A stretch of 64,000 nucleotides of DNA, taken from IMG/VR virus record IMGVR_UViG_3300021431_004525, one strand, 5' to 3'. The stretch is from a virus. Lineage: Duplodnaviria; Caudoviricetes. The notes below the pieces were generated by a model that made no database searches, was not told where the DNA came from, and was given only the letters and a program-made list of their open reading frames with translations. The position numbers were made by a program, and so were the translations under genes. Positions 4,046 to 61,093 of the stretch are shown here, in pieces (within the stretch, counting starts at the first letter, position 1; every line of letters begins with the position of its first letter).

Positions 4046-4078
4046 TTAACATTTTTTAATAAATAAAAATTGGACATG

Positions 4079-6245: not shown

Positions 6246-6246
6246 A

Positions 6247-6862: not shown

Positions 6863-6867
6863 ATGAT

Positions 6868-6990
6868 ATGATATACTTTGTAAATGGTAAGGCTAAATTT
6901 GCCTTCGGTGACAAGTCAATGAACGACCATGCAAGACAAGTCATGGATAATCTGAAATGTAAAGAAACCGGAAAAAGATTTGCTGCTTAA
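6868..6990 (+). CDS. small hypothetical protein (40 aa), C-terminal -FAA
   Basis: MIYFVNGKAKFAFGDKSMNDHARQVMDNLKCKETGKRFAA; translated by hand. Confidence 0.65.
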   Translation: MIYFVNGKAKFAFGDKSMNDHARQVMDNLKCKETGKRFAA

Positions 6991-7083
6991 CATTCTTTAG
7001 CACGGAATATTTGCATATATCAGATTTTATGACTATCTTTGCACCATCAAATTTAAGTTTAACGTTTTAATTCATTTAAAGTT

Positions 7084-7608: not shown

Positions 7609-7721
7609 ACAGATTTTTTAAATTAATACTATGTTGTTAGTCCGTTCAGTCCGAGAGGATAGGACGGATTTTATTTTACTTACATTTTGAAACATAAATT
7701 AACATATTATCAATGGATGGG

Positions 7722-7783
7722 TCGGAGATTATACTCTAAGGTGTCACCCTTACCAATCATCCATCGTTGGTTTTACAACTCCG
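7722..7783 (-). ncRNA. 62-nt structured RNA containing copy 4 of the 33-nt motif
   Basis: CGGAG...CTCCG closing stem; first 28 nt identical to 670-697; motif GGTAAGGGTGACACCTTAGAGTATAATCTCCGA at 7722-7754. Confidence 0.55.
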
Positions 7784-7796
7784 AAACTCGTTTGTG

Positions 7797-7939
7797 TGAC
7801 TCATTGGGGAATCGAACCCCAAAGGTGAACATTTTTGCCGACAGCACCATCTGTTTCCGACTACTCATGCGCTGACACCATACTTTATCATAGGATTGGT
7901 AGTCCTAAAAGCCTCCAAGCCAGCCTTATCGTTTGAGCC
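7797..7939 (-). ncRNA. tRNA-like RNA (143 nt) with oversized variable region
   Basis: Acceptor GGCTCA/TGAGTC; T arm TGGGG-TTCGATT-CCCCA; anticodon-like arm TAGGA-CTACCAA-TCCTA; promoter at 7979. Confidence 0.6.
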
Positions 7940-8172
7940 TTTGTTATTTGAAAGAACGCCTTTTATTTCTTTTGACGATGCAAAGGTACAAAATAATCTT
8001 GAATTTCTATGTTAATTGACTGTTAAAAATTCGTTAAAAAACGTTCAATTGTTAAATAAACTAAATCCACTAAAAATAAATTCATTTTTTCTTGCATATA
8101 TCAGTTTTTTTCCGTACCTTTGCATCGTGAAATTAAAACAAATAGTAATAACTCTTTAATACATTATTTATT

Positions 8173-9276
8173 ATGACACAGATTTTGAATATCAACGGAC
8201 AGAGTAACGTGAGCGTTAATCCTAACACAGAGACGGGCGCACAGCGTGTAGCATGGCAGCAGTTCGGTACAATCTGCGAGAAGGGTGCAACCATCCACGA
8301 CGTTATGGCAGACGTAACAAGTGAAAACCGCATTAACTATGAGGTTGGCGAAATGCCACTGATGCGTGTACCTTCTGAAATGGTTGAGGCTATCCGCAAA
8401 GGTGAGGCTTTCGATTGGAATCCGTCAGTGTCCGACATCATCAGCACCCATAAGGCTACGCTGCGCACTGACAATAACGACACACTTGGTATCGTAGGTA
8501 AGGGCTACGGAATCGTGCAGAACAGCAAGGCTTTCGACTTCATGGACTTCATTAAGGAGGCAAGCGGTAGTGAACCCGTTATCGAATCCTATGGCGCACT
8601 TGGCTATGGCGAACGTATGTTCATCACTGCCACACTTGGTGAGGATTCGTATCTTAACCCTAACGACGCAATCAAGAACTATGTGGTGTTCACTAACTCA
8701 CATGATGGCAGTGGCGGTGTCATGGCTTTCTTCACCCCGATTCGTGTGATTTGTCAGAACACGCTGAACATGGCTATTAAGGGCTGCGCCAACAAAGTGG
8801 TGTTCAAGCACACTTCTAAGGTCGACGAGCGTCTTGATTGGACTATCGAGCGCAACCGCAAAATTGCTGCTGAACTTTTCAGCAAGTCAGTGAAATTTAG
8901 CGACAAGTTCATGGAGCGTATGCTTGGACTCAAGGAGGAGACCATCACTGCTGAATATGCACGAGACTTCGTAGGCAAGTTGTGTCTGACTGCTCCCGCC
9001 TTTGAACTTTGGAAGAAGGCTGACTTCAAGGCTGACCACGTTGAGGAAATCAGCACACGGACAAAGAACATTATGGCAGCCCTGACGGACAGCATCGAGA
9101 ATGGAGTAGGACAGGAGTACAATCGTGGCACAAAGGTGTGGCTGCTGAATGGTGTGACTACCTACCTTCAGAATGAGAAAAATTGGAAATCTCAGGAAGA
9201 CAAGTTCAACGCTATGATGTTCGGTAGCGCACAGAAGAAGGTCGAGGATGCTTACCAACTGCTGATGGCTGCGTAA
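8173..9276 (+). CDS. DUF932/DUF945 (phage/plasmid-like) protein, C-terminal -MAA
   Basis: Motifs LGIVGKGYGIVQNSKAF, NSHDGSG, TPIRVICQNTL, KHT, W.LLNGVT. Confidence 0.85.
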   Translation: MTQILNINGQSNVSVNPNTETGAQRVAWQQFGTICEKGATIHDVMADVTSENRINYEVGEMPLMRVPSEMVEAIRKGEAFDWNPSVSDIISTHKATLRTDNNDTLGIVGKGYGIVQNSKAFDFMDFIKEASGSEPVIESYGALGYGERMFITATLGEDSYLNPNDAIKNYVVFTNSHDGSGGVMAFFTPIRVICQNTLNMAIKGCANKVVFKHTSKVDERLDWTIERNRKIAAELFSKSVKFSDKFMERMLGLKEETITAEYARDFVGKLCLTAPAFELWKKADFKADHVEEISTRTKNIMAALTDSIENGVGQEYNRGTKVWLLNGVTTYLQNEKNWKSQEDKFNAMMFGSAQKKVEDAYQLLMAA

Positions 9277-9292
9277 GGTTTCACGTGGAACA
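9277..9292. promoter_or_regulatory. second parS-like site GGTTTCACGTGGAACA
   Basis: One mismatch to TGTTTCACGTGGAACA; immediately after the stop codon, as for the first site. Confidence 0.6.
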
Positions 9293-9297
9293 TACAC

Positions 9298-9510
9298 GGA
9301 GGGGGATGTGGTAGGGCTACTGCACCCCCTCCCTATGTACCCCCTACCTACGTATCCACCCTCTCAGCCACCCCCTATGTTTCCGGCTGACGGTAGCACA
9401 CGGTTTGCTCTGCAAATCTTTGAAAAAATTCTGGAAAAAAATTAAGGGGGTGGGGGTTATTCTATTAAAGGTTATTTCAAAAAAAATTCCAGAAAAATTT
9501 TTGAAAATCT
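9298..9510. other. G/C-run and A/T-run non-coding segment; candidate genome-end/packaging or origin region
   Basis: Runs such as CACCCCCTCCCTATGTACCCCCTACC, GGGGGTGGGGGT, AAAAAATTCTGGAAAAAAA and AAAAAAATTCCAGAAAAATTTTTT; lies at the boundary of the early region. Confidence 0.35.
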
Positions 9511-9640
9511 AAAATATGACATATATTAAACAAATGTACTAAATATGTAAATTTAAGTTTCTTTAACTAAAAAGATTTGGCTATTTTGGCAAAAATGAGT
9601 AATTTTGCATTTGAAATTATTTTAAAATGAAAAAATACTT

Positions 9641-11383
9641 ATGGAAGTACAACAACAGAAAAAAATCACAGAAATTTTCAACACAATTGGTTGGAAACGT
9701 CAAAATGCTGAACGTTTAGTAATTGAAGAAAATGAACAGCGCGGTTATGAATGGGGGACTCAGCAGTTCAAAGAATTGATGGAAGACATTGAAGAACAAA
9801 TAGCGTCTAAATCCCCTAAAGAAATATATTTATCAACATTTCTTAGTCACCAAGAAGCAAATTCTCCATTTACTAAGATATTTGATGGTAATCAACGTTT
9901 AACTACAATTTTAATACTATTAATTGCTCTTCGTGATTATATCAAGCACAATTTTGAAGAGAACTTATATTATAATGACATTATTCGTAGAATTGAAGAA
10001 TGTATTTTTAATTCTAACAATGAATGTATTATGATTTTGCAAAACGAAGATAACAATTGTCTTACTGATATTCTCAATAACAGTGATTCTGTGTTCAAGA
10101 GTGTATATATGTTTAAAAACAATCTTGTTAACAAAATGTATCGTAACTGTTATAATTACATACACATGCGCACAGAACAATGTCCTGATTATCCGTTTTT
10201 ACTTTTTACAAAAGGCATTGAAAATGTAGTAATGGCAGAAGAACGTGCAACAACAAAAAATGAGGCAAGGCGTTTGTTTGGTAGAAAGAACGCTTCTGGT
10301 ATTAATGTAGCAAAAGGAAATGTAATTTCCTCTTTTATTTGTGGTTTAATTGATTTATATACTGACAGTCGTGATGAGTTCATTCACGTCAAGACTAAAT
10401 TTGATGGTGCAATGTCTCGTATTCCGTCAAAAGAGTACACTGACTTTTACCGTCTTTTTCTTTATTATTTAAAAGACACATATTTAACTCCGTCTCAAAC
10501 ACAAAAGGAAATTGAAAAAATCACTAAATCGGCATTAAAGGGTACTGAAAAGAATGACCATTTTAGTAACATTTCTGAATTGATTGACTGTATTGACCGT
10601 TTCAGTAAATTTATGTCTGAAGTTAGTCATAAGCGTTTAAGTGAGTTTGCACCTTCGCATAAGATTAATCGTCTGCTTTCATTAACACCAGATGAAATAA
10701 CAATTACGATTACGATGATAGATTTATTTACTGACAAATATTCTAATTACAACATTGATAATGAAGATAAATATCAAATATTAAATGGTGTAATGAAAAT
10801 TATCGTAAGAAGAATGTTCGCGCCAAATTCTACTAACCATTCGGAAAAGACTATGCTTAATGTAATGGGAAACATCCTAACTTTGAAGGGGTGTAATGAA
10901 CATTTATATCAGACGTTTAAACGTTACATGTCTGGCGAAACAAACAAGGCACTATGTTATGGCTATTTGACTGAAAGTGACCTTATAGAAAGAGTATCTA
11001 AAATTCCGGTTTATAGGCGTTTAGGTTCTAGGATGCAAGTGTTAAAATACTTATTCCATAACTTAAACAAATATGTTAATAGTGGTATCGAACAATATGT
11101 CTACACTGACTTTAATGATATGACTATAGAACACATTAAATCACAAAATGAATTTTCATCGAAAGACCTTTTACAACACACAATTGGTAATCTTACACCA
11201 CTTACACGAAATAATAACTCACGCTGTAAAAATCGTCCATTCAATGATAAAAAGGCTGTATACCTTAATAGCGGAATAAAATTAACAGAAAGTGTCGGCT
11301 CAAAGGCATATTTCAATAATGAAGAAATTGTTAATAGGAGTAATGAACTTGCCCCATTAATTATGGAAATTACAAGATTATAA
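9641..11383 (+). CDS. GmrSD-like protein (DUF262 + DUF1524/HNH)
   Basis: QRGYEW and DGNQRLTT (DUF262); C-terminal TIEHIKSQ...IGNLTPL...N (DUF1524 HNH). Confidence 0.8.
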   Translation: MEVQQQKKITEIFNTIGWKRQNAERLVIEENEQRGYEWGTQQFKELMEDIEEQIASKSPKEIYLSTFLSHQEANSPFTKIFDGNQRLTTILILLIALRDYIKHNFEENLYYNDIIRRIEECIFNSNNECIMILQNEDNNCLTDILNNSDSVFKSVYMFKNNLVNKMYRNCYNYIHMRTEQCPDYPFLLFTKGIENVVMAEERATTKNEARRLFGRKNASGINVAKGNVISSFICGLIDLYTDSRDEFIHVKTKFDGAMSRIPSKEYTDFYRLFLYYLKDTYLTPSQTQKEIEKITKSALKGTEKNDHFSNISELIDCIDRFSKFMSEVSHKRLSEFAPSHKINRLLSLTPDEITITITMIDLFTDKYSNYNIDNEDKYQILNGVMKIIVRRMFAPNSTNHSEKTMLNVMGNILTLKGCNEHLYQTFKRYMSGETNKALCYGYLTESDLIERVSKIPVYRRLGSRMQVLKYLFHNLNKYVNSGIEQYVYTDFNDMTIEHIKSQNEFSSKDLLQHTIGNLTPLTRNNNSRCKNRPFNDKKAVYLNSGIKLTESVGSKAYFNNEEIVNRSNELAPLIMEITRL

Positions 11384-36182: not shown

Positions 36183-38603
36183 ATGTTTGAAGCGAATTTT
36201 ACTAACGAAGCGGCTAATGTATTTCAATATATAAAAGATAATTTAATTAAGAAATATCCGTCAGATAAGATTACAATAGAGTATTTTATATTGTCTATTT
36301 TAGAAAACGAAGATTCAATCGGTTATCAGATACTATCTAAATCGACATTGACAAGTACACTGAATGGCATACACGATTGGTTTGTTCAATTTTTATCTAA
36401 GTTTAGTAATCAAAAGACCGTTGATAATATATCATATGATACTATATATGATAGGGCAATTGAACTTGCCAAGAAAGATTACAATGTTGATAATATAACT
36501 TCCGGGCATATATTGCTTTCTATCTTCAAACTTAGTGAGGGCATTTCTAAACAATTTAAACAGATTGGAATAACATACAACCAATTGTTAGCCAACCTAA
36601 ATTCAGTTTTACCGCCATCTGATAATAAGAAACCTGTTAGGGCAACCATTAAACTGCAAGTACCAAAAGGTGCTGTTGAAGAATTGTTGGTGGATATGAA
36701 TGAGTTGGCTTCAAACGGTAAGATAGATGAAGTCATTGGCAATGAAGAGACAATTAATAAAATTTTCAATATATTATCAAAACGTGACCGTAATAATGTT
36801 GTTATAGTCGGAGATTCCGGAATCGGTAAGACCGCAACGGTATCACATATTGCGAATTTATTGGTTAGTGGGAACGTACCAAAGCCTTTTAAAAACAAGA
36901 AACTTATTAAGTTCGATTTTATGAGTCTTGTTGCAGGTGCGGTTCTAAGAGGTAATTTCGAGGCAAAATTCAACGCAATTATAGCAGATGCCGTTAAAAA
37001 GGGTGGATATATATTCTTTATCGATGACTTGCAATCGATTCTATCTGATAAAAGTAAGTTCGCTGAAATCAATACGGAAAACTTACTCGACATGATTTTG
37101 ATGGAGCGTAATATCGGATTTATCTGTACGATGGATAACAGCTCGTATAATGCATACATCTATAATAATCCATCAATGAAAAGGCGTTTCCAAAAAATTG
37201 TAATGAAAGAGAAGGATATAGATACCGTCATATCAATTCTTAAATTGTGTAAGACAAAATATGAAAAATATCATAATGTATCTTACACTGATGGGGCTGT
37301 AGAAACTTGTGTAAAGTTAGTTAAACGTTACGTAAAGGATGGAAAATTGCCGGACTATGCAATAGATGTGTTCGATGAGATAGGCGCAAAAAAATCATTG
37401 GAGGTAAAAGAAGATGAACGTGTTGAGGAATGTAAGGAAAAATTAAAAGCAGTAAAAGAAAAAATCTCCAAGATTAATAATAGTACGGAAAGAAAGGATT
37501 ATGATGAGTATGATAATTTGAAAAATGAAGAGATTCTATTGAAGTCTGAGTTGTCTTTAATTGAAAAGGAAAATCTTTTGAATAATAAACCAATTGAAAT
37601 AACTGAAGATGATGTAAAAGAACAGATTTCGCTTAAAATTAATGTCCCACTTAGTAAAATAACTGAAAATGAAAGGGATAAACTTAAAAACCTTAATTCA
37701 AAATTAAAGGAATATGTAGTTGGACAAGACACTGCCGTTGATGAAGTGTGCCGTGTTGTCAAAAGACAAAGAATCGGTATGGTTAACAACAACAGACCGG
37801 CTGTATTATTCTTCAGTGGCATGACCGGAACAGGTAAAACTTATTTGGCTAAAAAACTCGCACAAGAGGTATTCGGTGATGAGAAATCGATGATAAGGCT
37901 TGATATGAGTGAGTATTCGGATAAGATGAGCGTAAATAAACTGTATGGTGCGGCAGCAGGATATATTGGCTATGATAAAGGTGGTATTCTTACAGAGGCA
38001 ATCAAAAAGAATAATCACTGTGTATTGCTGCTTGATGAAATGGAAAAGGCTAATGAAGACGTTCATAATGTATTCTTACAGTTGTTTGATGAAGGCAGGA
38101 TGACTGATAACATGGGAAATGTTGTAGATTTTTCCAATGTCATTGTAATCATGACATCCAACGTAGGTGCTAAGGAAATTGCACAAAAGGGAAAGGGTGT
38201 GGGATTTGTTAAGAATGAAAACTCGAACAACAAAGAGGCAATAGATAAAGCCATGAAGAACAAATTCAGACCGGAATTTATCAACCGTATTGATAGTGTT
38301 ATTTATTTCAATAAACTCTCAGAAGAAAATATAAAGGAGATAATTAAACTTGAAATAATCAAACTTGGAGAACGTATTGAAAATATCAAATATAAGTTAG
38401 GTGAGAGTTTTACGGATGATAGATGTATCTCTTATATATATAATAAGGTAAAGGAAGATGATGAATACGGCGCAAGACCTATTATACATACGATACAACA
38501 TGAATTTGAGGATAGGATAACAGATTATATTATTAATGAACAGCCCTCAGATGGCTTTGTTTTTGAACTGTCTGAAATAGGCTTGGAAAATATTTTAAAA
38601 TAA
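36183..38603 (+). CDS. clpC: ClpC/ClpB-type AAA+ ATPase
   Basis: Clp-N repeats; GDSGIGKT; coiled-coil M domain; GMTGTGKT; LLDEMEKA; GVGF loop; FRPEFINRID; YGARPI. Confidence 0.88.
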   Translation: MFEANFTNEAANVFQYIKDNLIKKYPSDKITIEYFILSILENEDSIGYQILSKSTLTSTLNGIHDWFVQFLSKFSNQKTVDNISYDTIYDRAIELAKKDYNVDNITSGHILLSIFKLSEGISKQFKQIGITYNQLLANLNSVLPPSDNKKPVRATIKLQVPKGAVEELLVDMNELASNGKIDEVIGNEETINKIFNILSKRDRNNVVIVGDSGIGKTATVSHIANLLVSGNVPKPFKNKKLIKFDFMSLVAGAVLRGNFEAKFNAIIADAVKKGGYIFFIDDLQSILSDKSKFAEINTENLLDMILMERNIGFICTMDNSSYNAYIYNNPSMKRRFQKIVMKEKDIDTVISILKLCKTKYEKYHNVSYTDGAVETCVKLVKRYVKDGKLPDYAIDVFDEIGAKKSLEVKEDERVEECKEKLKAVKEKISKINNSTERKDYDEYDNLKNEEILLKSELSLIEKENLLNNKPIEITEDDVKEQISLKINVPLSKITENERDKLKNLNSKLKEYVVGQDTAVDEVCRVVKRQRIGMVNNNRPAVLFFSGMTGTGKTYLAKKLAQEVFGDEKSMIRLDMSEYSDKMSVNKLYGAAAGYIGYDKGGILTEAIKKNNHCVLLLDEMEKANEDVHNVFLQLFDEGRMTDNMGNVVDFSNVIVIMTSNVGAKEIAQKGKGVGFVKNENSNNKEAIDKAMKNKFRPEFINRIDSVIYFNKLSEENIKEIIKLEIIKLGERIENIKYKLGESFTDDRCISYIYNKVKEDDEYGARPIIHTIQHEFEDRITDYIINEQPSDGFVFELSEIGLENILK

Positions 38604-40393: not shown

Positions 40394-41590
40394 ATGAAAG
40401 TGATTTTAAAGACATATAAGTATAGAATGTACCCAAATAAGGAGCAAGAACAGATGCTTGCAAGGTATTTCGGGTCGGTTCGCTTTGTCTATAATCATTT
40501 TCTTGCTGAAAGAAAACAGCAATACACTGAGAACGGTAAAAGTGATAACTACTATACACAAGCAGGCACACTTACTAAACTGAAAAAACAAGAAGAATAC
40601 TTGTGGCTAAAGGAAATTAATTCACAAACACTTCAATTTGCACTTAGAAATCTTGAAACAGCATACACAAACTTCTTTAGAGGTAATGCAAGGTTTCCAA
40701 GATTCAAGTCAAAAAAGAATGGTGGTAGTTTCCATATACCACAACATTGCTCTGTTGAAAATGGTAGAATCTACATACCAAAGTTTAAGGGTGGTATAAA
40801 GATAGTGGAACACAGACCATTCAAAGGTGGTGATGTTAGGAATATGACAATCTCTGTCACGCCAAGCGGAAAATATTATGTTTCAATACTTACTCAAGTT
40901 GCATATGAACCATTGCAGAAAACCAATGCAGAGGTTGGTATAGACTTGGGACTAAAAGACTTGGTAATCACAAGTGATGGTAAAAGGTATTCAAGCAATA
41001 AGTTCATCAAGCATTACTCAAAGGAACTTGCAAAGGCACAGAAGCATTTGTCAAGGAAGCAGAAAGGTAGCAATTCTTGGGACAAACAAAGAATTAAAGT
41101 TGCAAGAATACAAGAGAAAATTCATAACTGTAGGTTTGACAAGTTACATAAGGTTAGTACTGACTTAATCAGGAAGTATGATGTAATCTGTTGCGAGGAT
41201 TTGAATGTTAAAGGTATGCAAAGAAACCATAGACTTGCTCAGGCAATATCTGATGCAAGTTGGGGGGCATTTCTTTCAATGCTTACCTATAAGGCGGTTA
41301 TGAATGATAAACAAGTAGTGAAGATAGGAAGATACTATCCATCTTCAAAAACTTGTCATCATTGTGGCTGGATTAAAGAGGATTTATCGTTAAAAGATAG
41401 GGAATGGACTTGCCCTAATTGTGGAGAAGTTCTTGACAGAGATGTTAATGCAGCAATGAATATCCTTTCAGAAGGATTAAGAAATATATCGGCAGGAACT
41501 GTCGATTACACTGATGGAGCAGATGTAAGACCCTTTCAAGGGCAGTCAGCTATGAAGTCAGAAGCCCACAAATCTTTAGTTTTTGGGTAG
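40394..41590 (+). CDS. tnpB: RNA-guided endonuclease TnpB
   Basis: KTYKYRMYP, RFVYN, GIDLG, CEDL, SSKTCHHCG, CPNCG, DRDVNAA; all three RuvC acidic residues present. Confidence 0.95.
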   Translation: MKVILKTYKYRMYPNKEQEQMLARYFGSVRFVYNHFLAERKQQYTENGKSDNYYTQAGTLTKLKKQEEYLWLKEINSQTLQFALRNLETAYTNFFRGNARFPRFKSKKNGGSFHIPQHCSVENGRIYIPKFKGGIKIVEHRPFKGGDVRNMTISVTPSGKYYVSILTQVAYEPLQKTNAEVGIDLGLKDLVITSDGKRYSSNKFIKHYSKELAKAQKHLSRKQKGSNSWDKQRIKVARIQEKIHNCRFDKLHKVSTDLIRKYDVICCEDLNVKGMQRNHRLAQAISDASWGAFLSMLTYKAVMNDKQVVKIGRYYPSSKTCHHCGWIKEDLSLKDREWTCPNCGEVLDRDVNAAMNILSEGLRNISAGTVDYTDGADVRPFQGQSAMKSEAHKSLVFG

Positions 41591-44444: not shown

Positions 44445-44484
44445 AAAATAAAGGGGTAGAATAAACTTCTACCCTTTTTTATTT
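44445..44484. terminator. bidirectional terminator
   Basis: AAAGGGGTAGA-ATAAACT-TCTACCCTTTT. Confidence 0.75.
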
Positions 44485-45403
44485 ATAAAAACATTTTCAG
44501 ATTTTCTATTATTATCGGATTATATATTTTATAACATGAATGCCTTATTTTCCTATTATCCGTTATTGTAATGCCGAACAGTTGTTTTATGAAATCAGCA
44601 AATTCATCTTTTGTCGATGGTGTGAATCTGAAAATTCCTTTATTATCGAACATTTCATAATTTCTGTTTTGTATTAACAGTTCTTTTACCAAACGATTCA
44701 TTTCTTTGCCGAAATTAATATTCAACTTTGTGAAGTGTGGCATTTCCGATAAGAATATTGGAAATTTAAAATTCCTTTTGAAGCCATTGATGATATGCGC
44801 CCTAAAATACATCTTGAAATTATCAAGTGTATTGCAATTCACAATTATATGGTCATCATCAAACATATCCCACGTAAGTGATGTTTCTGAAATATGATTG
44901 GATACATTTGTTGTTATAGGACGTACAATAAAGAAACATTGGCCTCCAAACTCTTCTATGAGTTTTCGTTCATTAGGAAATCTTACATCATCAACTGCAA
45001 CCGTTTTACCTTCAGCAACATATTTCTGTATATCCCTTTTCATACAGTTTACATGCCAATCCGGATTATGTTTACGTATACAATCCGTACCTATGACTTG
45101 TAACATCTGTCTTATGTTGGTAAATTCGACACGTCCTATGTCAGCTTTGATTTCTTTTTTGTCTATATCGGTCCATTTATTTATTATATCATACCATCTA
45201 TCGTCAGGCGCATAACAAAATGTATGGCCGTTATCTTTTTTCTCATTTAGTTCTCCGATTGAACACCCGAGAATTTCAGCACAGATACCTTTTAAATAAT
45301 TTGCTGCTGTTACAATAACGCCATCATAGTAATCTTTTACTATTTCAGATAAAACGCCTTTACCTGACCTTTTACGACCACAAAATCCAAAAATCTGACT
45401 CAT
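44483..45403 (-). CDS. deoxynucleoside monophosphate kinase
   Basis: GRKRSGKG, RQMLQVIGTD..RK, DDVRFPNE, HISE. Confidence 0.88.
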   Translation of the reverse strand: MSQIFGFCGRKRSGKGVLSEIVKDYYDGVIVTAANYLKGICAEILGCSIGELNEKKDNGHTFCYAPDDRWYDIINKWTDIDKKEIKADIGRVEFTNIRQMLQVIGTDCIRKHNPDWHVNCMKRDIQKYVAEGKTVAVDDVRFPNERKLIEEFGGQCFFIVRPITTNVSNHISETSLTWDMFDDDHIIVNCNTLDNFKMYFRAHIINGFKRNFKFPIFLSEMPHFTKLNINFGKEMNRLVKELLIQNRNYEMFDNKGIFRFTPSTKDEFADFIKQLFGITITDNRKIRHSCYKIYNPIIIENLKMFL

Positions 45404-45762
45404 ACATCAATATTTATTTCTTCAAATTCATCACTATCATTATGTGGCATATTAACGTTGCTTTCTTCATTTTCATCGATATTATCGATTGTTCTTATTT
45501 CTTTGAGTATTTTTGAAAGACTTGTTGTTTCTTTTTCGTATATCTTATTGTCTTTCTCATGTTCAACGAAAACCTGTTTAATGGTCACATCCCTTACATT
45601 TTTCTTAATGCCGGCCAATGACAAAACTTCATCATCAAATGAGAAGCCTTGTTTTATTAAGTTAAAAATTTCTTTTTTGCCGTTTTCTAATACTTCTTTG
45701 ACTGTTTTGCCTTTATGAATACCAGTCGTTATTTCAGAATTAATATTTAATGTTTTATGCAT
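45400..45762 (-). CDS. hypothetical protein
   Basis: 120 aa; GIHKGKTVKEV. Confidence 0.7.
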   Translation of the reverse strand: MHKTLNINSEITTGIHKGKTVKEVLENGKKEIFNLIKQGFSFDDEVLSLAGIKKNVRDVTIKQVFVEHEKDNKIYEKETTSLSKILKEIRTIDNIDENEESNVNMPHNDSDEFEEINIDV

Positions 45763-45797: not shown

Positions 45798-46235
45798 TCA
45801 TTTGAAAAGTTTCAAATGACCGGTAAATTCATCTATTTTATCACTCCAAAACGGTCCGATTCCTACACAAGTTTTTGTTTTGACCCCATGAAAACACGTC
45901 AAGCCATTATCCTCAATAAGCACAACCGGTATTTTTTCCTCTGCTGTTTTGTTGTATTCTACAATTTTATCATAAATGTCAACCATTTCATTTTCCGTAT
46001 TGACTTCAAGGCATATTTTAGTGAAAATTCCATTAAGCCATTTATCAAGAATTGAGTTTTCACCAAATGTCACTTGATATTTTGTACGGTCATCAAGACA
46101 TGTCTTTTTACTGAACATTGTAAGTAAAGCCCCCAAGGACGCATGACATCCTTGGGCGACTATTTTACCAACATTCATTTGCTTTGACTTATCTATGATA
46201 ATTACTTGTTTTACTTGTCTTTCGATGTCTTTCAT
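45798..46235 (-). CDS. pth2: peptidyl-tRNA hydrolase, PTH2 type
   Basis: KQVIII, M..GKIVAQGCHA, KICL, DNGLT, TCVGIGP. Confidence 0.9.
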   Translation of the reverse strand: MKDIERQVKQVIIIDKSKQMNVGKIVAQGCHASLGALLTMFSKKTCLDDRTKYQVTFGENSILDKWLNGIFTKICLEVNTENEMVDIYDKIVEYNKTAEEKIPVVLIEDNGLTCFHGVKTKTCVGIGPFWSDKIDEFTGHLKLFK

Positions 46236-46335
46236 TTTTACTATGCTATTTAAATATAAAGGTCTGCCTTCCTAACGTCACAGATGTGCTAAGATTATAT
46301 GCCTTGTACGTTGTAGAATAGGCAACCTTTTTATT

Positions 46336-47502
46336 TTATGCGGCCTCTTTATTTTTATCCTTATTCTGATATTTGGAAACCATATCAGCGGTAATTGTAA
46401 GAGTTACCTTTTCCTTGTTGTAACCACCGTAATCAAACATAACATCAGCAAGCAACTTGTCGATAACGCCACGAAGACTACGAGCACCGGTTTTCTTTTC
46501 GTATGCTTCCTTGGCAATAAGTCTAAGTGCATCATCCTCGAATGTTAAATCAACATTATCAATCCAAAACAGTTTCTGATACTGTTTAACGATAGAGTTT
46601 TTAGGCTCTTTCAGAATTTGGAACAACTGTTCCTCAGTAAGATGCTTTGTATGCGTGACAAGTGGGAAACGTCCGATAAGTTCCGGTATGATGCCAAACT
46701 TCTTCAAATCATCAGTCGTAACATCAGCAAGCAAATCCTCTTCCTCGTTATTAGTTCCGTTCATTATTGAATTGAAACCAATCACCTTTTTATTCTTGCG
46801 CTTCTCAATGATTTTCTCTAAGCCATCAAAAGCACCAATGCCAAAGAAAAGAATATTTGTGGTATCAACAGGAATACACTCCTGTTCAGGATGCTTACGT
46901 CCACCATTCGGCGGAACAAGAACGTTAGTACCCTCAACAATTTTAAGCAATGATTGCTGTACGCCTTCACCGCCTACATCACGTGTAATTGACGTATTTT
47001 CACTCTTTCGTGAAATCTTATCGAACTCATCTAATACAACAATCCCATGTTCTGCTGCTTGAATGTTAAGATTTGCTGCCCGCAAAACACCAAGTACAAC
47101 AGTTTCTACATCATCACCAACGAAACCAGATTCGGTAACTTTTGTTACATCAGCAATGTAGAATGGGATATTCAGATGCTTTGCAAGCATTCTAAGCATA
47201 AATGTTTTACCAGTTCCACTTGGACCGCAAATGATGGTGTTACTCTTTTCAATTTCTACGTCACTGTACGGATTGTCTTCCTCTCCTTGTGTGTATCCGT
47301 ATATGTTGTCCATGAAACGTTTGTAATGGTTATACACAGCCACAGAAATATACTTTTTGGCCTCCTCCTGTCCGATTACATACTGATTAAGGTAGTCATA
47401 GAGATATTTTGGAGTAACTTTGTCCATAATCTCACGCATTTGTGCCTTAATCTCATTCACTTCTTCTAAAGATACTTCTTCTGTTTTCTTTTTTGCCGTC
47501 AT
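46336..47502 (-). CDS. clpX: ClpX ATPase lacking the N-terminal zinc-binding domain; C-terminal -EAA
   Basis: [55 protein letters not shown] loop, PELIGR, GARSLR; start reassigned to MTAKK. Confidence 0.95.
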
Positions 47503-47612
47503 AAAAATATTTTTTGCTTTAAATTCGAGTGCAAAGGTACTAAATATTTTTTTAAACACCAAATATTTCTATATTTATTTTTATAGATTTTCGTATTTTT
47601 TAACATTTACAT

Positions 47613-49733
47613 ATGCTGGCATATCAAAAAATAAATGAAATTAAAGGCTTTCATGGTACTTCATATGACTTTAATAGGTTTAATCATAAAAAGTATCTCG
47701 ACACAGGAGACGGCTCACAAGAGTTCGGATGGGGTACTTATGTGACTGACAATAGGGATATTGCCGGAGAATATGCTGAACGTTCAAAAGAAGCAAACAC
47801 AGGTTCGTATGACAAGAATAATGAACGTATAACAACGGAAAGATTAACTTCAATAGCCAACGAAACAATAACAAATGATGCAATTGCACAAGATATTATC
47901 AATAGTCTACGTATGATAATGTATACTACAAAGACTATTGATGCTAATACGTTGGAAACAGAAAAAAACAAATTTATCTCAAAATATAGTGAAAACAGTA
48001 ATGAAATAGATTCATTTTTCAGAAATCTGTCAGAATTGAACCCACATCTTTCAAAGGCTAAAAGTTATGTGTATGAGGTTGAAATACCTGAAAACAATGG
48101 TAGTAACTATATTGAATGGTTTAATCCAATTAATAATGGAATAAAAACAAAAATAGTAAAAGGGTTAAATTTCCTAAATACCAAATACCATAATAGATTT
48201 GAGGGAATAACTGAGGGGATAATTGAGGGAACGAGTAACGGAAAAGAACTGTATGAACGTTTGGTTGGATTATTAGGCTCACCAAAAGCGGCATCGTTAT
48301 TTTTGCTTAATATGTGTAATATTGACGGCATAGTATATCCAATTGGCACTGTTTTTGGGTTCGATGGCGAAGAAGGAAATAATTATGTTATATTCAACGC
48401 ATCTTCAGTTAAAATAAACAATAAGATTGTTAGTGAAAGTAAAGTTATGAATTTAAATGAATGGAAACCGTCGTTTTTCGACCAATTGCCGGAAAAGATA
48501 AAGTTGTATCACGGAACTGATATAATGGCATTAAATGACATTATAGAAGAAGGAAAGATATGTGCATTGCATGGTCATAAACGAAGTGAAACATATGGTG
48601 TCAATTGGTTTAGCACACAATTAACCAATAATTTCGGTCATGGAAGTAACTTCTCCATTGAAGTGCCTAAATCAGATTTCATTAACGGAAAATTCAGGTT
48701 CATGAACAACACCGATGTGACATCGTGGGATAATGAAATACCGATTGACGGATATAATTTCAGAATAGAACGAATCGGCGGTTTCAATGAGGAAACTTTC
48801 AGAAATCTTTTTGAAAGGGTTAATGGAGATATATTTGAATGGGTTAACAAACTGAACAAGATAAACTATGAGTTCAATGAATATATGATGACGGTTGAAT
48901 ATCCTGTTGTCATGTATTTGATTAAACAATTGTTCGGTGAAGAGGTGCTTAGAAAGGAAGGAATAATTGAATCAAAACTATATATCAATGAAATGGATGC
49001 GGAAGATGTAAGTCTTTCTTCATTCAAGACAAAGGAGGAACTTCATGACAGGTTTTGGATAAACGAGAAACTTAATTCAAGGGTAAGGGAGAAACTGCTT
49101 GATATTGCTGATGATTTTATCGATGAACTGGCAATACCTAATTTCAAACCAAAGGATATTGTATTTACAGGCTCACTTGCCAACTATAATTGGTCACGTT
49201 ATTCAGATATCGACGTACATATAGTAGTGAGTTTTAAAGACATATATAAAAAAGTAGACTTGATTGATGATTATTTTAAGTCTAAAAAGGAAATATGGAA
49301 TCAGACACATGAAAAATTGAAGATATATGGCTATCCGGTGGAAATAAGCGTTGAAAACGCAGATGAACCGGGGGTATCATCAGGTGTATACTCACTTATT
49401 AAGAATAAATGGGTGACTGAGCCGTCAAACTTTGATGACGCAAAACTTAATGAGAAATACATTAAGGAATTTTCTGCCGAAATAATGAATGAAATTGATG
49501 AAATTGAAAAACGTATAGAAAAGGAAACAAGCAATTCAAGACTTGAGGAACTTGGCGAAAGAACCATGAAAATATTCAAACGTCTTAAGAATATGAGAAA
49601 GGAAGGACTTGCAAGAAGCGGTGAAATGTCCAGCGGAAATATCATATACAAACTGTTAAGGCGTATGAATTATTTGGATAAGATATGGGATATTGTAAAC
49701 AACACATATAATAAAATAAACTCCATTAAATGA
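47613..49733 (+). CDS. polyvalent protein: ART-like + ART-like + nucleotidyltransferase
   Basis: FHGT...F..F....GDGSQEFGWGTYVT; LYHGT...GVNWFST; GSLANYNWSRYSDIDVH (GS...DxD). Confidence 0.75.
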   Translation: MLAYQKINEIKGFHGTSYDFNRFNHKKYLDTGDGSQEFGWGTYVTDNRDIAGEYAERSKEANTGSYDKNNERITTERLTSIANETITNDAIAQDIINSLRMIMYTTKTIDANTLETEKNKFISKYSENSNEIDSFFRNLSELNPHLSKAKSYVYEVEIPENNGSNYIEWFNPINNGIKTKIVKGLNFLNTKYHNRFEGITEGIIEGTSNGKELYERLVGLLGSPKAASLFLLNMCNIDGIVYPIGTVFGFDGEEGNNYVIFNASSVKINNKIVSESKVMNLNEWKPSFFDQLPEKIKLYHGTDIMALNDIIEEGKICALHGHKRSETYGVNWFSTQLTNNFGHGSNFSIEVPKSDFINGKFRFMNNTDVTSWDNEIPIDGYNFRIERIGGFNEETFRNLFERVNGDIFEWVNKLNKINYEFNEYMMTVEYPVVMYLIKQLFGEEVLRKEGIIESKLYINEMDAEDVSLSSFKTKEELHDRFWINEKLNSRVREKLLDIADDFIDELAIPNFKPKDIVFTGSLANYNWSRYSDIDVHIVVSFKDIYKKVDLIDDYFKSKKEIWNQTHEKLKIYGYPVEISVENADEPGVSSGVYSLIKNKWVTEPSNFDDAKLNEKYIKEFSAEIMNEIDEIEKRIEKETSNSRLEELGERTMKIFKRLKNMRKEGLARSGEMSSGNIIYKLLRRMNYLDKIWDIVNNTYNKINSIK

Positions 49734-53983: not shown

Positions 53984-54076
53984 ATATAAAAGTCACTGAT
54001 TTACAGTGGCTTTTTTGTTTTAGATATATAACTTTTGATTTTTTGCTCCTATTTATATAATTTTAATAAAAAGAGC

Positions 54077-55957
54077 ATGAGTAAACAAAGTGAATATATA
54101 AAATGCTATCAAGATAAATCGAGGATTTACTTTATCGAAAATTATCTTTACACATTCAACGCTATGGAACGTAGTGAAGTACCGTTCTTATTATTCCCAA
54201 GACAAAAGGAGTATTTAAGGGCGTGTGCGGAGGATAATGAAGTTGTAACAGTAAAATGCCGTCAGTCAGGTATTTCCACTGTTTCTGCTGCATACATTTG
54301 CGGTCAATGTGTATTTGCCAATAAGAAGTCACCGGAAACCATTCTATGTATAGCAAATAAACTTGACCAAGCAATTGAATTGACGAATAAGATTGTTAAT
54401 TTTCTTGACCAAGTACCAAGATGGATGTGGGGCAGTGACTATTATTCACCTGACCCGGATAGTTCTAAAAATACAAAATCGATTTATATAAAAAGAAATA
54501 AAAACTACATTGAACTTTTTAACGGCTGTAAAATTTACGCCCGTGCATCCGGTCCTCACTCAGCTCGTGGTGTCAGTAGTACGACTATACTTTGTCTTGA
54601 CGAGGCAGCGTTCTTGGCTGATTCTGTTGCGGCATATACGAGTGCCAGAGCATCTCAGTCAGCGGTTGAGAATCCGAAATGCCTGATGATTTCCACACCT
54701 AACGGTAAAGACCCATTATATTATAAAACTTATTCACAAGCATTAAGAGGTGAGAATAATTTCAGAATTGTTGAATTTAAGTTCTATCAAGACCCTCGTT
54801 ATAACCGATATCTTAAATGGTATAAGAAAGACGAAAAAACCGGAGAGATTCTATGGGATGAAGACCCTGTAATAGATAAGAAAGGCAACATTGAATATAA
54901 CGAAGAAAGGTGGAGGAATCTTGAAAAGAACGGATGGACACCGACTTCACCTTGGTTCGAGGATATGTGTAAATCGTTCAATAATGACGAACAGATGATT
55001 GCACAAGAGTTGCTTGTTTCGTTCCTAGGTTCTTCGGATAACGTTGTACCACCGGAAGTCATTGAAATGCATCAGAATGAAAATGTTATCCAAATAACCC
55101 CGGATTGGCCGTTAAGAGACCAACTTATCGCAGAAACATGGATATGGCAAGACCCGATTCCGGGACACCGTTACATCGTATCAGTAGACCCTTCATCCGG
55201 TAGTGGAGAAGATAGAACCGCAATTGAAGTGATTGATGTGGATGCCATCGATGAGAATGGAACACCGTTCTTTGACCAAGTACTTGAATATAACGGAAAA
55301 ATCAACGGTGAGGAAATAGCCGGTTTGGTTGATAGATATGGTCATATATATAATGATGCGTTGGTAGTCGTTGAAGCCATCGGAGGATATGGCGATGCCG
55401 TTATCTTGACCTTGATGAACCTAGGTTATCCCAATTTATACTATGATGAAAATGCGTTGAAGAACTATACATTGAAAGTAACCGCTTCCAAGTTCAATAA
55501 AAAGGCGGGTGAGGCATTGCCAGGTTTCAGAAGTAACGGTTTACGTATTCAGATGATTTCGAACTTTGTTGAAATGCTTAAAAACAATTCATTCAGAGTT
55601 AGAAGTACACGTGTTATCAGCGAATTGGAAACTTGGGTGTTCAAGAACGGAAGACCGGACCACCAAGACGGAAGCCATGATGATTCACTTACATGCCTTG
55701 CTATGGGATTGTTCATTGCCGTATTCTATATGTTACGTAATGAAAAGGCTAAACAAAAGGACACGCAAATTGTTAAGTCATGGTATGTCAATAACGGTAA
55801 CAATTCGGATTACAGAAGTGGTAAACTTGAAGACAAGGTTGTAATGTCATCGCCAAAGAAAATGCCGTTCTACAGTAATGTGCAAATGGCTAAGAAAGAA
55901 AAGGCAAGATTTAATGCAATGCTTTTGCTCGGTGGCTTCGGAAGGAAGAAACATTGA
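54077..55957 (+). CDS. terminase large subunit
   Basis: KCRQSGIST (Walker A), LCLDEAAF (Walker B), ISTPNG, QE...F, VSVDPSSG, HDD; start reassigned to MSKQ. Confidence 0.92.
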   Translation: MSKQSEYIKCYQDKSRIYFIENYLYTFNAMERSEVPFLLFPRQKEYLRACAEDNEVVTVKCRQSGISTVSAAYICGQCVFANKKSPETILCIANKLDQAIELTNKIVNFLDQVPRWMWGSDYYSPDPDSSKNTKSIYIKRNKNYIELFNGCKIYARASGPHSARGVSSTTILCLDEAAFLADSVAAYTSARASQSAVENPKCLMISTPNGKDPLYYKTYSQALRGENNFRIVEFKFYQDPRYNRYLKWYKKDEKTGEILWDEDPVIDKKGNIEYNEERWRNLEKNGWTPTSPWFEDMCKSFNNDEQMIAQELLVSFLGSSDNVVPPEVIEMHQNENVIQITPDWPLRDQLIAETWIWQDPIPGHRYIVSVDPSSGSGEDRTAIEVIDVDAIDENGTPFFDQVLEYNGKINGEEIAGLVDRYGHIYNDALVVVEAIGGYGDAVILTLMNLGYPNLYYDENALKNYTLKVTASKFNKKAGEALPGFRSNGLRIQMISNFVEMLKNNSFRVRSTRVISELETWVFKNGRPDHQDGSHDDSLTCLAMGLFIAVFYMLRNEKAKQKDTQIVKSWYVNNGNNSDYRSGKLEDKVVMSSPKKMPFYSNVQMAKKEKARFNAMLLLGGFGRKKH

Positions 55958-56005
55958 AAAACATTGGATAGATACTTATATTTATATTAAATAGGATTGT
56001 ATACA

Positions 56006-58063
56006 ATGCCAACAAAACCAACGATATTTCAAAAATTGACAAATATATTGTCAAATAGCAATGACATACAGACGGCCGTCAAAAAGGTAAATTCATATGG
56101 CCTTGATGACTCTGATATCCTTTTTAGAACTAAGAACAAGGATGAGTATGACAGTAAACTTAAGCAGCTAAGACAAGGCCATCTTCTTGCAAAGCAGTGG
56201 AAAAAAGCAACTTATGAATTAACGAATAAATCACTTGCCGGTCTAAACGAGGTAAAAATGATGTATCGGGATGCTGACTTGATGGATTTATTTCCGGAAA
56301 TCGGTACAGCACTTGATATAGTTTCAGAGGAAGCATGCTTTATCAAGAAAGATGCCTTTATGGTTAATGTCACGTCTAAATCAGAACGTGTAAAGTCGAT
56401 TATACAAGACTTACTTGTGAATAGGCTTCAGATTAATGTAATGCTTCCTATGATTTGCCGAAGCATGTGTAAGTATGGCAACACGTTTATGCTGCTTGAC
56501 ATTAACGATGAAAACGGTGTCGTTAACTGGAAACAGTTACCGGTTTATGAAATCGAGAGATATGAAAACGGTATGGAAAATCCATATGCCGGTGCTTATG
56601 TTAATCTCAATAATATTAACTTGAACCAAACAGATTCAACAAAATTCGTGTGGGTTGGCCAATCTGAATTTATACCATATAGGAATTGGCAGATAGCGCA
56701 TTTCAGATTACTTTACGATTCATTACTATTGCCGTATGGTGTATCATATCTTAATAAGGCAAGGCGACACTGGCGCATGCTTTCAATGATGGAGGATATG
56801 ATGCTGATTTATCGTCTTGAACGTTCAATTGAAAGGCGTGTGTTTAAGGTAAACGTTGGTAATATAGATGAGGATGATGTTCCTGCATATGTAGAGGACA
56901 TTGCAAATAATTTCAAGAGGACACCAATCATTGACCCAATGACCGGTCAATTGGACTTGAAGAAAAACATCTTGAATGTATCAGAAGATTTCTTCGTTCC
57001 GGTGCGTGATGAAAATGCAAACAGCCCTATCGAGACTTTACAAGGTGCTCAGAATATGACAGCGATGGACGATATTAAGTTCGTTCAAAATAAAGTCGTA
57101 ACGGCATTGAGAGTGCCTAAATCATTCTTGAATTTTGAAGAGGCTACTGGTGATGGTAAAAACTTGTCATTACTTGATGTAAGGTTTACAAGAACGGTGA
57201 ACCGTATTCAGCAGGCATTACTTATGGAGTTGAATAAGATTTGCATAATTCACCTTTATTTGTTAGGTTTCGAGGACGAACTTACTAATTTCAGCCTTAC
57301 GATGAATAACCCATCTTCTCAGGCCGAAATGCTTGAATTGGAGAACATGGCAAAGAAGGTGACAACGGCAAAGGATGCAATATCAGATGCCGGTAATGGA
57401 ATACAACTCATGTCATGGACAAGGGCTTGTAAGGAAATAATGGGATGGTCAGATAAGGAAATCGAAGAGAACTTACAAGAAATAAGACTTGAAAAGGCTC
57501 TTGCAGCAGAACTTGAAAAGACGGCACAGATTATCAAACGTACAAGAATATTTGATAAGGTCGATAATATCTATGGTGAGCCGGGTGCTGAATATTCAGC
57601 CGGTGCTCCGGGAGAAGACGGAGAAGAAGGCGGAATGTCAGGTGGCGGCGGTGCCGGAGGATTCGGCGGTGGCGCAGTAGGAAGCGAGGACTTCGATTTC
57701 GGTGATGAAGAGGGCGAAGAAACCGGTTCAGAAGGTGAAATGGATATGAACACTGCCGCAGATGAAGAAGGTACTGATATGGGCGGTGGTGAAGAAACAG
57801 AAGAAACCGAACCTACAACTTCAACAATGGGTGAAACGTATATGAGGAATATGTTGAAGAATATCATTGATGAACAAAGGGAAATGCAGAAAGATATAGT
57901 TAGGAAAAGTAAGAAATATACAGGCAAACTTGCTGAAAGGAAAAATAAATACTATAAGGAAAAGAACCGTATAAACGAAAATGTGCCAATATATCAGAAA
58001 AATTTCCTGATTAATGAAGATTTAAATTCAATGATTAAACAATTGGGTAACTTAAACGATTAA
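56006..58063 (+). CDS. portal protein (T4 gp20-like)
   Basis: SYLNKARR...MMEDMMLIYRLERSIERRVFKVNVGN, EDFFVP, IETLQG, ALRVPK; acidic Gly-rich tail. Confidence 0.92.
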   Translation: MPTKPTIFQKLTNILSNSNDIQTAVKKVNSYGLDDSDILFRTKNKDEYDSKLKQLRQGHLLAKQWKKATYELTNKSLAGLNEVKMMYRDADLMDLFPEIGTALDIVSEEACFIKKDAFMVNVTSKSERVKSIIQDLLVNRLQINVMLPMICRSMCKYGNTFMLLDINDENGVVNWKQLPVYEIERYENGMENPYAGAYVNLNNINLNQTDSTKFVWVGQSEFIPYRNWQIAHFRLLYDSLLLPYGVSYLNKARRHWRMLSMMEDMMLIYRLERSIERRVFKVNVGNIDEDDVPAYVEDIANNFKRTPIIDPMTGQLDLKKNILNVSEDFFVPVRDENANSPIETLQGAQNMTAMDDIKFVQNKVVTALRVPKSFLNFEEATGDGKNLSLLDVRFTRTVNRIQQALLMELNKICIIHLYLLGFEDELTNFSLTMNNPSSQAEMLELENMAKKVTTAKDAISDAGNGIQLMSWTRACKEIMGWSDKEIEENLQEIRLEKALAAELEKTAQIIKRTRIFDKVDNIYGEPGAEYSAGAPGEDGEEGGMSGGGGAGGFGGGAVGSEDFDFGDEEGEETGSEGEMDMNTAADEEGTDMGGGEETEETEPTTSTMGETYMRNMLKNIIDEQREMQKDIVRKSKKYTGKLAERKNKYYKEKNRINENVPIYQKNFLINEDLNSMIKQLGNLND

Positions 58064-60373: not shown

Positions 60374-61093
60374 ATGAGTAAATTATATAATAAGGAACAA
60401 CTTGTTGAAATTAAGAAAGGCCAGACAGGCTATGGTCTTCTTATTGAACATGATGGGCATATTATCGGAAAATCTGATGTTATCAATCAGATAAAGGAAG
60501 ATATTGATGCACATCATCAATTCGTCATACCAGATGATTTTGTTGTTTCTGCCGTTTTTCAGAAATACGGTATCAAAAACGCAAACGGAAGAATATATCC
60601 GGAAGAAATCCTTAAAAGGGAAGTACAGAAATATTTGGAAACAAGAGTGGCAATGCATAATGCAGTCGGTGCGTTAGACCATCCGGCTTCATCTTCATTG
60701 TCAGGACATGATGTGTCACATAACATACTTGATTTAAGATGGGAAGGACACACTCTTGTAGGTGAAATGAAACTACATCTTTCACCCGGTTATAAACGTT
60801 ACGGAATTTGTTCTACAAGTGGCGACTTGGCCGCTAACATGATTCTTGACGGTATTCTTATTGGCGTATCATCAAGAGGCGTAGGCAGTGTTGAACAGAA
60901 ATTCGGTACATCAGTGGTTGGTGATGACTTTGAATTGGTCGGTTGGGATATAGTTTTAGAGCCGTCAACACCGTCTGCTTGGATTAAACAAAACTCAGAA
61001 GAACTTGAACCGTTTATTGAAACTGACTTAACAAAAAAAGGTAATGTCTTATCAGAGAAAATTGAAAAAATCGGTAAGATTTTGAATATTTAA
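60374..61093 (+). CDS. prohead protease (T4 gp21-like)
   Basis: NANGRIYP, GALDHP, VSH, GVSSRGVGS, DIVLEPSTPSA. Confidence 0.93.
   Translation: MSKLYNKEQLVEIKKGQTGYGLLIEHDGHIIGKSDVINQIKEDIDAHHQFVIPDDFVVSAVFQKYGIKNANGRIYPEEILKREVQKYLETRVAMHNAVGALDHPASSSLSGHDVSHNILDLRWEGHTLVGEMKLHLSPGYKRYGICSTSGDLAANMILDGILIGVSSRGVGSVEQKFGTSVVGDDFELVGWDIVLEPSTPSAWIKQNSEELEPFIETDLTKKGNVLSEKIEKIGKILNI

Follow-up and report, generated by a model that had tools for sequence, protein, structure and literature searches.

A jumbo-phage ClpX that lacks the zinc-binding domain: a candidate adaptor-independent unfoldase for Ala-ended proteins

The DNA analysed here, called the window below, is the stretch of 64,000 nucleotides of IMG/VR record IMGVR_UViG_3300021431_004525 (Duplodnaviria; Caudoviricetes), which belongs to a T4-like jumbo phage, with a T4-type portal, a large terminase and a gp21-type prohead protease (Table 1). 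The gene under study, clpX, encodes a homologue of the AAA+ unfoldase ClpX that lacks the N-terminal C4 zinc-binding domain (ZBD) and ends in Ala-Ala (AA); it lies behind a host-type promoter and is followed by a gene for a PTH2-type peptidyl-tRNA hydrolase (Table 1). A longer open reading frame (ORF), starting at a TTG and reaching 47562, was rejected because the promoter would then fall inside the coding region. An identical ClpX protein is present on a metagenome scaffold of 391,794 bp in the ENA, and megablast of the clpX locus against GenBank phages gave no match.

On the NCBIfam models NF003745 and TIGR00382 the protein scores 479 and 466 bits, the cut-offs being 359 and 371, respectively. 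Its match runs from position 43 to position 405 of a profile of 418, the missing first ~42 positions being those of the C4 ZBD, and solved ClpX chains in the PDB match it at E~1e-105 with alignments that begin at about E. coli residue 47-62. Downstream of this point lie the Walker A motif (GPSGTGKT, residues 93-100), the Walker B motif (VLDEFD, residues 156-161), the pore-2 loop (RDVGGEG, residues 174-180) and the sensor-2 motif (GARSLR, residues 339-344), in addition to the pore-1, RKH and IGF loops; the Walker A, Walker B and sensor-2 positions are invariant across 43 ClpX relatives. An AlphaFold2 (AF2) model built on these relatives has a predicted local distance difference test score (pLDDT) of 81 and a predicted template modelling score of 0.79. 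The pLDDT falls below 50 only in the pore loops, the IGF loop, the first 9 residues and the last 5 residues, the low value of the IGF loop being what is expected of a flexible loop. According to the model, an N-terminal segment of about 28 residues with one predicted helix stands in place of the ZBD, while residues 380-388 are without secondary structure, with a pLDDT below 50 for residues 384-388. Three statements of the initial annotation are thereby borne out: that the RKH, pore-1 (GFVG), pore-2 and IGF elements are all kept, that the C4 ZBD is absent, and that the protein ends KEAA, on what is predicted to be a disordered tail. As far as its sequence tells, this ClpX is an intact, genuine AAA+ unfoldase that has lost its N-terminal ZBD, and it is predicted to form hexamers, to unfold substrates and to activate ClpP.

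The same architecture characterizes a clade of at least 120 ClpX clusters at 90% identity, of which the 120 closest were taken as a sample. Their members are 73-91% identical to the window protein and 364-398 residues long, and many are found on contigs of 230-393 kb; the clade corresponds to T4-like rumen and gut phages of about 350-390 kb, in which every ClpX is devoid of the ZBD. The CxxC...CxxC pattern occurs in none of the 120 clusters, while RKH is kept in all of them and [IL]GF in 119 (IGF in 116, LGF in 3). The Phe of the pore-1 loop is less general, GFVG being found in just 8 of the 120 and GYVG in the other 112. Essentially all of 80 sampled cellular ClpX, by contrast, retain the ZBD. 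The best cellular matches show no more than 50-56% identity and are spread over many phyla, for which reason a recent capture of a host clpX was rejected.

With bacterial ClpX (E. coli and H. pylori; PDB 3HWS, 6WR2 and 1UM8) the phage protein shares about 50-56% identity over the AAA+ module and all the catalytic and loop motifs. It differs from them by the absence of the C4 ZBD, replaced by the ~28-residue segment, by the Phe for Tyr substitution in the pore-1 loop of the window's sublineage, and by its Ala-Ala end, which none of 76 sampled cellular ClpX displays. It resembles the laboratory ClpX-deltaN constructs; ClpX lacking the N-domain is the standard tool for separating direct tag recognition from adaptor delivery. 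ClpX proteins encoded by jumbo phages have been described, with speculative roles (PMC7824862, PMC6102473), and no description of a ZBD-less phage ClpX was found in the literature. The ClpX of Bacillus phage G (gp258), of Agrobacterium phage Atu_ph07 (gp2) and of the Prevotella Lak phages are likewise encoded by very large phage genomes; clpP lies directly upstream of clpX in phage G, and Atu_ph07 also encodes ClpP, ClpA, ClpB and ClpS. Unlike the window protein, however, the ClpX of phage G, Atu_ph07 and Lak-B2 retain the ZBD (CSFCGK...C..C), and those of phage G, Atu_ph07 and Lak are not Ala-ended and are only 47-49% identical to it.

The AA end of ClpX has counterparts in the window. With a simple greedy ORF call yielding 78 ORFs, and an expectation derived from an Ala frequency of 4.9%, 8 of the 78 ORFs end in AA where 0.19 are expected (p=2e-11). 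One of these eight overlaps a tRNA and is probably spurious, and a ninth AA-ended ORF, 1130-1456 on the minus strand, ends KLAA; seven AA-ended ORFs are grouped between 1.1 and 9.3 kb, in what is called here the early-gene cluster, and the eighth AA-ended protein is ClpX. In the related genome G004, whose ClpX is 79% identical, 11 of 171 ORFs are AA-ended (p=4e-13), so that the AA enrichment claimed for the phage proteins holds in both. Orthologues retain AA while the preceding residues change (YHKAA/KKEAA, TKQAA/KAEAA, FVEAA/FVAAA), while the codons vary (GCC-GCA versus GCT-GCA, for instance) and despite upstream indels. Since AA is kept while codons, stop codons and preceding residues vary, selection acts on the end of the protein rather than on the DNA; a DNA-motif origin was rejected because the Ala codons (GCT, GCA, GCC and GCG) and the stop codons differ between genes and between orthologues. 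Of the seven AA-ended early proteins one is a DUF932 protein; for the other six, searches of Pfam and PHROGs revealed no function.

The putative AA degrons, which are read from sequence, resemble the ssrA tag, the end of Caulobacter CtrA and the Ala tails made by RqcH in that a free C-terminal Ala-Ala is borne by a flexible tail, and, like these, they are under selection as protein sequence and occur on several proteins that are co-regulated. They differ from these by the residue at position -3, which is E, K, Q, D or M instead of Leu; more precisely, ClpX has Glu at this position, and the remaining AA-ended proteins have E, E, K, D, Q, M and L. By E. coli rules, the AA tags without Leu at -3 would be weak. 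In addition, the tags are phage-encoded, and no tmRNA, SmpB or RqcH is found in the phage sequences checked.

The enrichment does not follow clpX from phage to phage. There is no genome-wide AA enrichment in G010, G011 and G012, which carry ClpX, nor in G006, which does not, and around the orthologues of the DUF932 gene AA is enriched in G004 and L105 only. The co-occurrence of phage clpX with AA enrichment, a prediction of the initial annotation, thus fails in G010, G011 and G012. In G012 four orthologues of early-cluster proteins end KA, KA, KA and VA; to judge from these sequences, a terminal Ala may be older on the early proteins than the AA form. Of the 15 window genes that a host-type promoter immediately precedes, 12 are not AA-ended, and the same holds for 33 of the 39 such genes of G004. 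The direct association between promoter and AA ending does not reach significance in the window (p=0.18) and is modest in G004 (p=0.019).

The AA tail of ClpX itself is kept, with different codons, in G001, G002, G004, G005 and G012. In the ClpX tree a terminal Ala (AA, VA, IA or TA) is a deep state, the Ala ending being gained or lost at least nine times; one shallow clade is mostly without it and ends ...ENKE or ...IEQK, and 51 of the 120 closest phage clusters are not Ala-ended. To judge from a comparison of the protein tails, the AA tail seems to come and go from strain to strain, presumably through minor alterations of the 3' end of the gene. Cellular ClpX also frequently end in Ala: 48 of 76 sampled proteins end in xA (SA, TA, IA and so on), none of them in AA. 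Only the AA form is special to the ZBD-less phage clade (12/27 versus 0/76 cellular, Fisher p=1e-8), with cases that are clustered by descent. In the shallow clade, P0073, P0080 and P0086 have identical ClpX bodies and differ in their tails alone (...EQTFKENKE, ...EQTFEEAA and ...EQTFKEK). Examples of Ala-ended cellular ClpX are the cyanobacterial ...PESA and, in Firmicutes, ...GEIA, ...AETA and ...KKSA; ZBD-bearing ClpX on small IMG/VR contigs, viral or host, end ...NKKIA.

The Bacteroidota sigma-A promoter consensus is TTTG-N19-21-TAnnTTTG. A promoter of this type, TTTG-N20-TACCTTTG, precedes clpX and lies at the same distance from the gene in 9 of 11 relatives; the pattern occurs 21 times in the window versus 3.9 expected, and none of 100 shuffles reached 21. 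An E. coli-type sigma-70 promoter at 47530 was rejected, the sigma-70 scan being negative. The host-type promoter reported near this position is thus real, but of the Bacteroidota and not of the E. coli type. Because the motif is enriched in the window and conserved at clpX, the phage host is most likely a member of the Bacteroidota, and because the promoter is of the Bacteroidota sigma-A type, clpX should be transcribed early, by the host RNA polymerase. Ten of the 21 motifs are packed in the first 9.6 kb (700-9610), often one per small gene; the G+C content of this region is slightly above that of most of the window.

Table 1. Positions of the clpX locus and of the other window features mentioned in the text.
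Feature	Position	Strand	Evidence or remark
Bacteroidota-type promoter TTTG-N20-TACCTTTG	47532-47563	-	29 nt before the clpX ATG
clpX, 388-aa AAA+ unfoldase without N-terminal ZBD	46336-47502	-	NCBIfam, PDB chains, AF2; ATG at 47502
Pore-1 loop GFVG, residues 126-129	47116-47127	-	
RKH loop, residues 202-204	46891-46899	-	
IGF loop tripeptide, residues 241-243	46774-46782	-	Predicted ClpP-docking element
C-terminal tail of ClpX, ending ...NKEAA	46339-46368	-	Disordered in the AF2 model
pth2, PTH2-type peptidyl-tRNA hydrolase	45798-46235	-	PF01981
orf120, conserved gene of the putative clpX operon	45400-45762	-	
dNMP (deoxynucleoside monophosphate) kinase-like gene, last of the putative operon	44483-45403	-	PF21448, E=4.9e-16; synteny conserved; 4-nt overlap with orf120
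Divergent gene for 706-aa ART-like/nucleotidyltransferase protein	47613-49733	+	Weak ART-PolyVal and nucleotidyltransferase matches
ClpC-like two-ring Hsp100	36183-38603	+	AAA_2, AAA_lid_9, ClpB_D2-small, weak Clp_N
Early-gene cluster with seven AA-ended ORFs	1130-9276	both	
AA-ended ORF	1130-1456	-	
AA-ended ORF	2176-2481	-	
AA-ended ORF	2550-3239	-	
AA-ended ORF	3670-3957	+	
AA-ended ORF	5706-6245	+	
AA-ended ORF	7084-7608	+	
AA-ended ORF	8173-9276	+	DUF932
Large terminase	54035-55957		Head gene
T4-type portal	55997-58063		Head gene
T4 gp21-type prohead protease	60374-61093		Separate from the Clp genes

The gene that follows clpX is probably of the PTH2 type: its product matches Pfam PF01981 with 89.4 bits (cut-off 23, E=2.5e-25) over the full domain (1-115), it is about 25-30 residues longer than the domain model, and it remains below the NCBIfam equivalog cut-offs, including that of TIGR00283 (77.1 versus 82 bits and 78.3 versus 126 bits). 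Neither the sigma-70 scan nor the search for the Bacteroidota motif found a host-type promoter in the 100-nt gap between clpX and pth2, and the two genes are probably co-transcribed. Likewise, given that no host-type promoter separates the four genes clpX, pth2, orf120 and the dNMP kinase-like gene, and that the last two overlap by 4 nt, I read them as one operon, with clpX first. PTH2 lies directly 3' of clpX in the window, in G001, in the P0002 contigs (ClpX 84% identical) and in G012 (ClpX 54% identical), but not in G002-G005, G007, G008, G010, G011 and one 75%-identical relative; in G010 only a sub-threshold match (19 bits) was found, away from clpX. The adjacency therefore looks ancestral but dispensable. 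Homologues of orf120, which matched no family in protein-family searches, adjoin clpX in eight relatives (G001-G004, G007, G008, G010 and G012) and lie elsewhere in G011. Throughout the clade, clpX has no more constant neighbour than the divergent gene for the 706-residue ART-like protein, which adjoins it in nine relatives (G001-G005, G007, G008, G010 and G012).

The ClpC said to lie elsewhere in the window is a two-ring Hsp100 whose residues 685-687 form a VGF loop; its second ring is intact, but the Walker B motif of the first is degenerate (IDDL). It remains below every ClpA and ClpB cut-off of NCBIfam (ClpB, 541 bits versus 1232; ClpA, 525 bits versus 993), so that likeness to ClpC, and not membership of the family, is what can be retained of that assignment. 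It is present in all larger relatives, even in G006, which has no ClpX, and is thus more widely spread in the clade than ClpX. Two other genes of the window deserve mention in their own right: one for a GmrSD-type (type IV restriction-like) protein with both its N- and C-terminal domains, at 9641-11383 (+) and with its own host-type promoter, and a TnpB gene (IS605 OrfB/Cas12f-like) at 40394-41590 (+), between a lytic transglycosylase-like gene and the gene for a 938-residue repeat-rich protein.

No clpP was found in the window at E<=1 when six phage ClpP were compared by phmmer with all window ORFs of at least 40 residues, in agreement with the initial annotation. A canonical clpP is present in four of the five near-complete relatives that carry a ZBD-less ClpX, namely G011 (339 kb, complete), G012 (351 kb, complete), G010 (76% complete) and G014 (77% complete); the fifth, G017 (IMGVR_UViG_3300028833_000054, 363,991 bp, 94% complete), has only a ClpP-like paralogue of about 90 bits. 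The canonical proteins score 195-260 bits on the Pfam model, and for the ClpP of G011 and that of a closer relative (P0180) the best NCBIfam fit is the ClpP model PRK14514. Three contigs of 233,905, 331,869 and 304,126 bp appear, when two independent protein searches are paired, to carry both ClpP and a ClpX 75-76% identical to that of the window. G006 (355 kb, complete) encodes ClpP and the ClpC-like protein but no ClpX. In the relatives, ClpX is part of a Clp set that also comprises ClpP and the VGF-bearing ClpC-like protein, and on balance the whole genome of the window phage probably encodes a clpP of its own. It had been proposed that the phage ClpX redirects ClpP; since its relatives (G010, G011, G012, G014 and, apparently, the three contigs) carry their own canonical clpP, a hijack of the host ClpP is not needed. 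In the relatives clpP is the second or third gene of operons headed by a Bacteroidota-type promoter, which suggests that clpP is also early. It ends a conserved block of about ten genes that starts with a phage sigma-70-like factor (L134:605-10669; G006:337214-348059) and is syntenic between a close relative (L134) and a distant one (G006). A second, divergent ClpP-like gene (~90 bits, ~200 residues, model positions 47-180) occurs in G017, G011, G012 and G016. As regards tagging factors, ARAGORN scans of the window and of the records of 11 relatives yielded no tmRNA, and neither SmpB nor the RqcH-type NFACT_N domain was found in G004, G006, G010, G011 and G012; in a control search B. thetaiotaomicron matched the RqcH/NFACT_N family (PF05833).

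In E. coli, ClpX deprived of its N-domain degrades ssrA-tagged substrates as usual, whereas substrates that depend on adaptors or on the ZBD are no longer degraded; the RKH, pore-1 and pore-2 loops of E. coli ClpX read the free Ala-Ala of ssrA, and its IGF loop docks ClpP. Since loss of the ZBD leaves direct C-terminal tag recognition as the main entry route, the most economical function of the phage protein would be that of a ClpX(P) that works without adaptors and is specialised for proteins bearing Ala-type tags at the C-terminus, a reading that I put forward tentatively. Without the ZBD, the phage ClpX would be unable to take adaptor-delivered or ZBD-dependent substrates, while the RKH, pore-1 and pore-2 loops would serve to read a C-terminal Ala-Ala and the IGF loop to dock ClpP, which either the phage itself, as in most relatives, or the host would supply. 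Candidate substrates would be the products of stalled translation that the host marks by tmRNA or by Ala tails and, in the window's sublineage, the AA-ended early proteins of the phage and possibly ClpX itself. [quoted passage not shown] Several observations weigh against specialisation for Ala-tagged proteins. AA enrichment is restricted to some lineages (the window, G004 and L105, and weakly G005), many close ClpX relatives no longer have the AA tail, and the -3 residue is mostly charged or polar (E, K, Q or D) and not Leu as in ssrA. Most relatives are without PTH2. Finally, no clpP was found in roughly 230-280 kb of pooled partial contigs of close relatives, and G017 combines a ZBD-less ClpX with just a divergent ClpP-like paralogue.

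The closest competitor to adaptor-independent degradation of Ala-tagged proteins keeps the clean-up and drops the early proteins: Pth2 would free peptidyl-tRNA, ClpX(P) would remove ssrA-tagged or Ala-tailed products, and the AA-ended phage proteins would be incidental, the trigger being, for example, the cutting of tRNAs by host anticodon nucleases or mRNA decay. The clpX-pth2 adjacency in two lineages whose ClpX are just 54% identical (the window group and G012) speaks for it, as does the action of both Pth and Ala-tail degrons in RQC (PMC11633108). Iyer et al. proposed that PTH2 of jumbo phages rescues ribosomes jammed by cleaved tRNAs (PMC7824862), and in the FCB group (Fibrobacterota, Chlorobiota and Bacteroidota) 98% of genomes have ssrA and 21% have rqcH (PMC11633108). 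It is unlikely nonetheless, because PTH2 is missing from G002-G005, G007, G008 and G011 (and sub-threshold in G010) while clpX is retained, the relatives searched lack phage-encoded tmRNA, SmpB and RqcH, and selection for AA on the early proteins is left unexplained. A quite different role would be that of a ClpP-independent remodeller of replication, transcription or virion-assembly complexes, or of a decoy, titrating the ClpP of the host or poisoning its ClpX. ClpX disassembles MuA transpososomes without proteolysis, and in E. coli it uses the N-domain to do so; this domain is missing in the phage ClpX. The strict retention of the IGF loop ([IL]GF in 119 of 120) argues for ClpP docking, and most near-complete relatives co-encode ClpP. 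The remodeller or decoy thus seems improbable, even though clpP is missing from the window, G017 lacks a canonical ClpP and clpX lies near nucleotide-metabolism and head genes, and even though, as suggested by Iyer et al., the ClpX and ClpA of jumbo phages may act as translocases or in assembly (PMC7824862). A part for ClpXP as head-maturation protease was rejected: a gp21-type protease is present, so that head maturation needs no ClpXP, and the ClpP of the relatives fit the models of cellular ClpP much better than those of head-maturation proteases.

The initial annotation had gone further than degradation of Ala-tagged proteins, proposing a proteolytic timer in which the ZBD-less ClpX captures ClpP, taken here as that of the host, degrades AA-tagged early proteins on schedule and then destroys itself through its own AA tail. 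ClpX and the early-gene cluster do have in common a host-type promoter and the AA ending, AA is conserved in orthologues despite codon changes and indels, G006, which has no ClpX, shows no AA enrichment and has none of the cluster genes, and the ClpX tail is disordered in the model. These observations are offset by others: most near-complete relatives carry their own ClpP, G010, G011 and G012 have ClpX without AA enrichment, and 80-85% of the genes directly behind a host-type promoter do not end in AA. Moreover, the two features are dissociated in L199/L111, where ClpX is AA-ended and the cluster is without AA, and in L197/L105, where ClpX ends in VA and the cluster is AA-ended. The timer as proposed is thus quite improbable. 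With regard to self-removal in particular, the AA on a flexible tail would suit it, but a terminal Ala is common on cellular ClpX (48/76) and has been lost from 51 of the 120 closest phage clusters, and the tail is therefore no fixed device invented by the phage; given that terminal Ala is widespread on ClpX, the idea depends on an old feature of ClpX that has been elaborated by a single residue. Autodegradation of E. coli ClpA by ClpAP is a precedent for a Clp unfoldase that is a substrate of its own protease, the degradation of the phage ClpX being purely conjectural; the case differs from that of ClpA in that cellular ClpX, too, commonly end in Ala, an ending that is not known to play such a role there. 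A related possibility, also rather unlikely, is a self-limiting, adaptor-free ClpXP circuit in which the AA-tagged early proteome and then ClpX would be cleared at the early-to-late switch, and in which indels at the 3' end of the gene could toggle the ClpX tail.

Whatever its substrates, the ZBD-less ClpX means that nature has made, in a large and abundant clade of rumen and gut jumbo phages, the type of truncation that was designed in the laboratory, and it offers a natural system for asking what a tag-only ClpX does during infection. The conserved terminal Ala on ClpX may itself merit study. For the window phage there is a list of candidate substrates: ClpX and the seven early proteins, each with an Ala-Ala end that is under selection at the protein level. 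Should the link between this ClpX and these ends prove true, it would constitute a virus-encoded degron regulon in bacteria; should it prove false, the annotation of a widespread Clp system of Bacteroidota phages (ClpX, ClpP and the ClpC-like protein) would still be refined.

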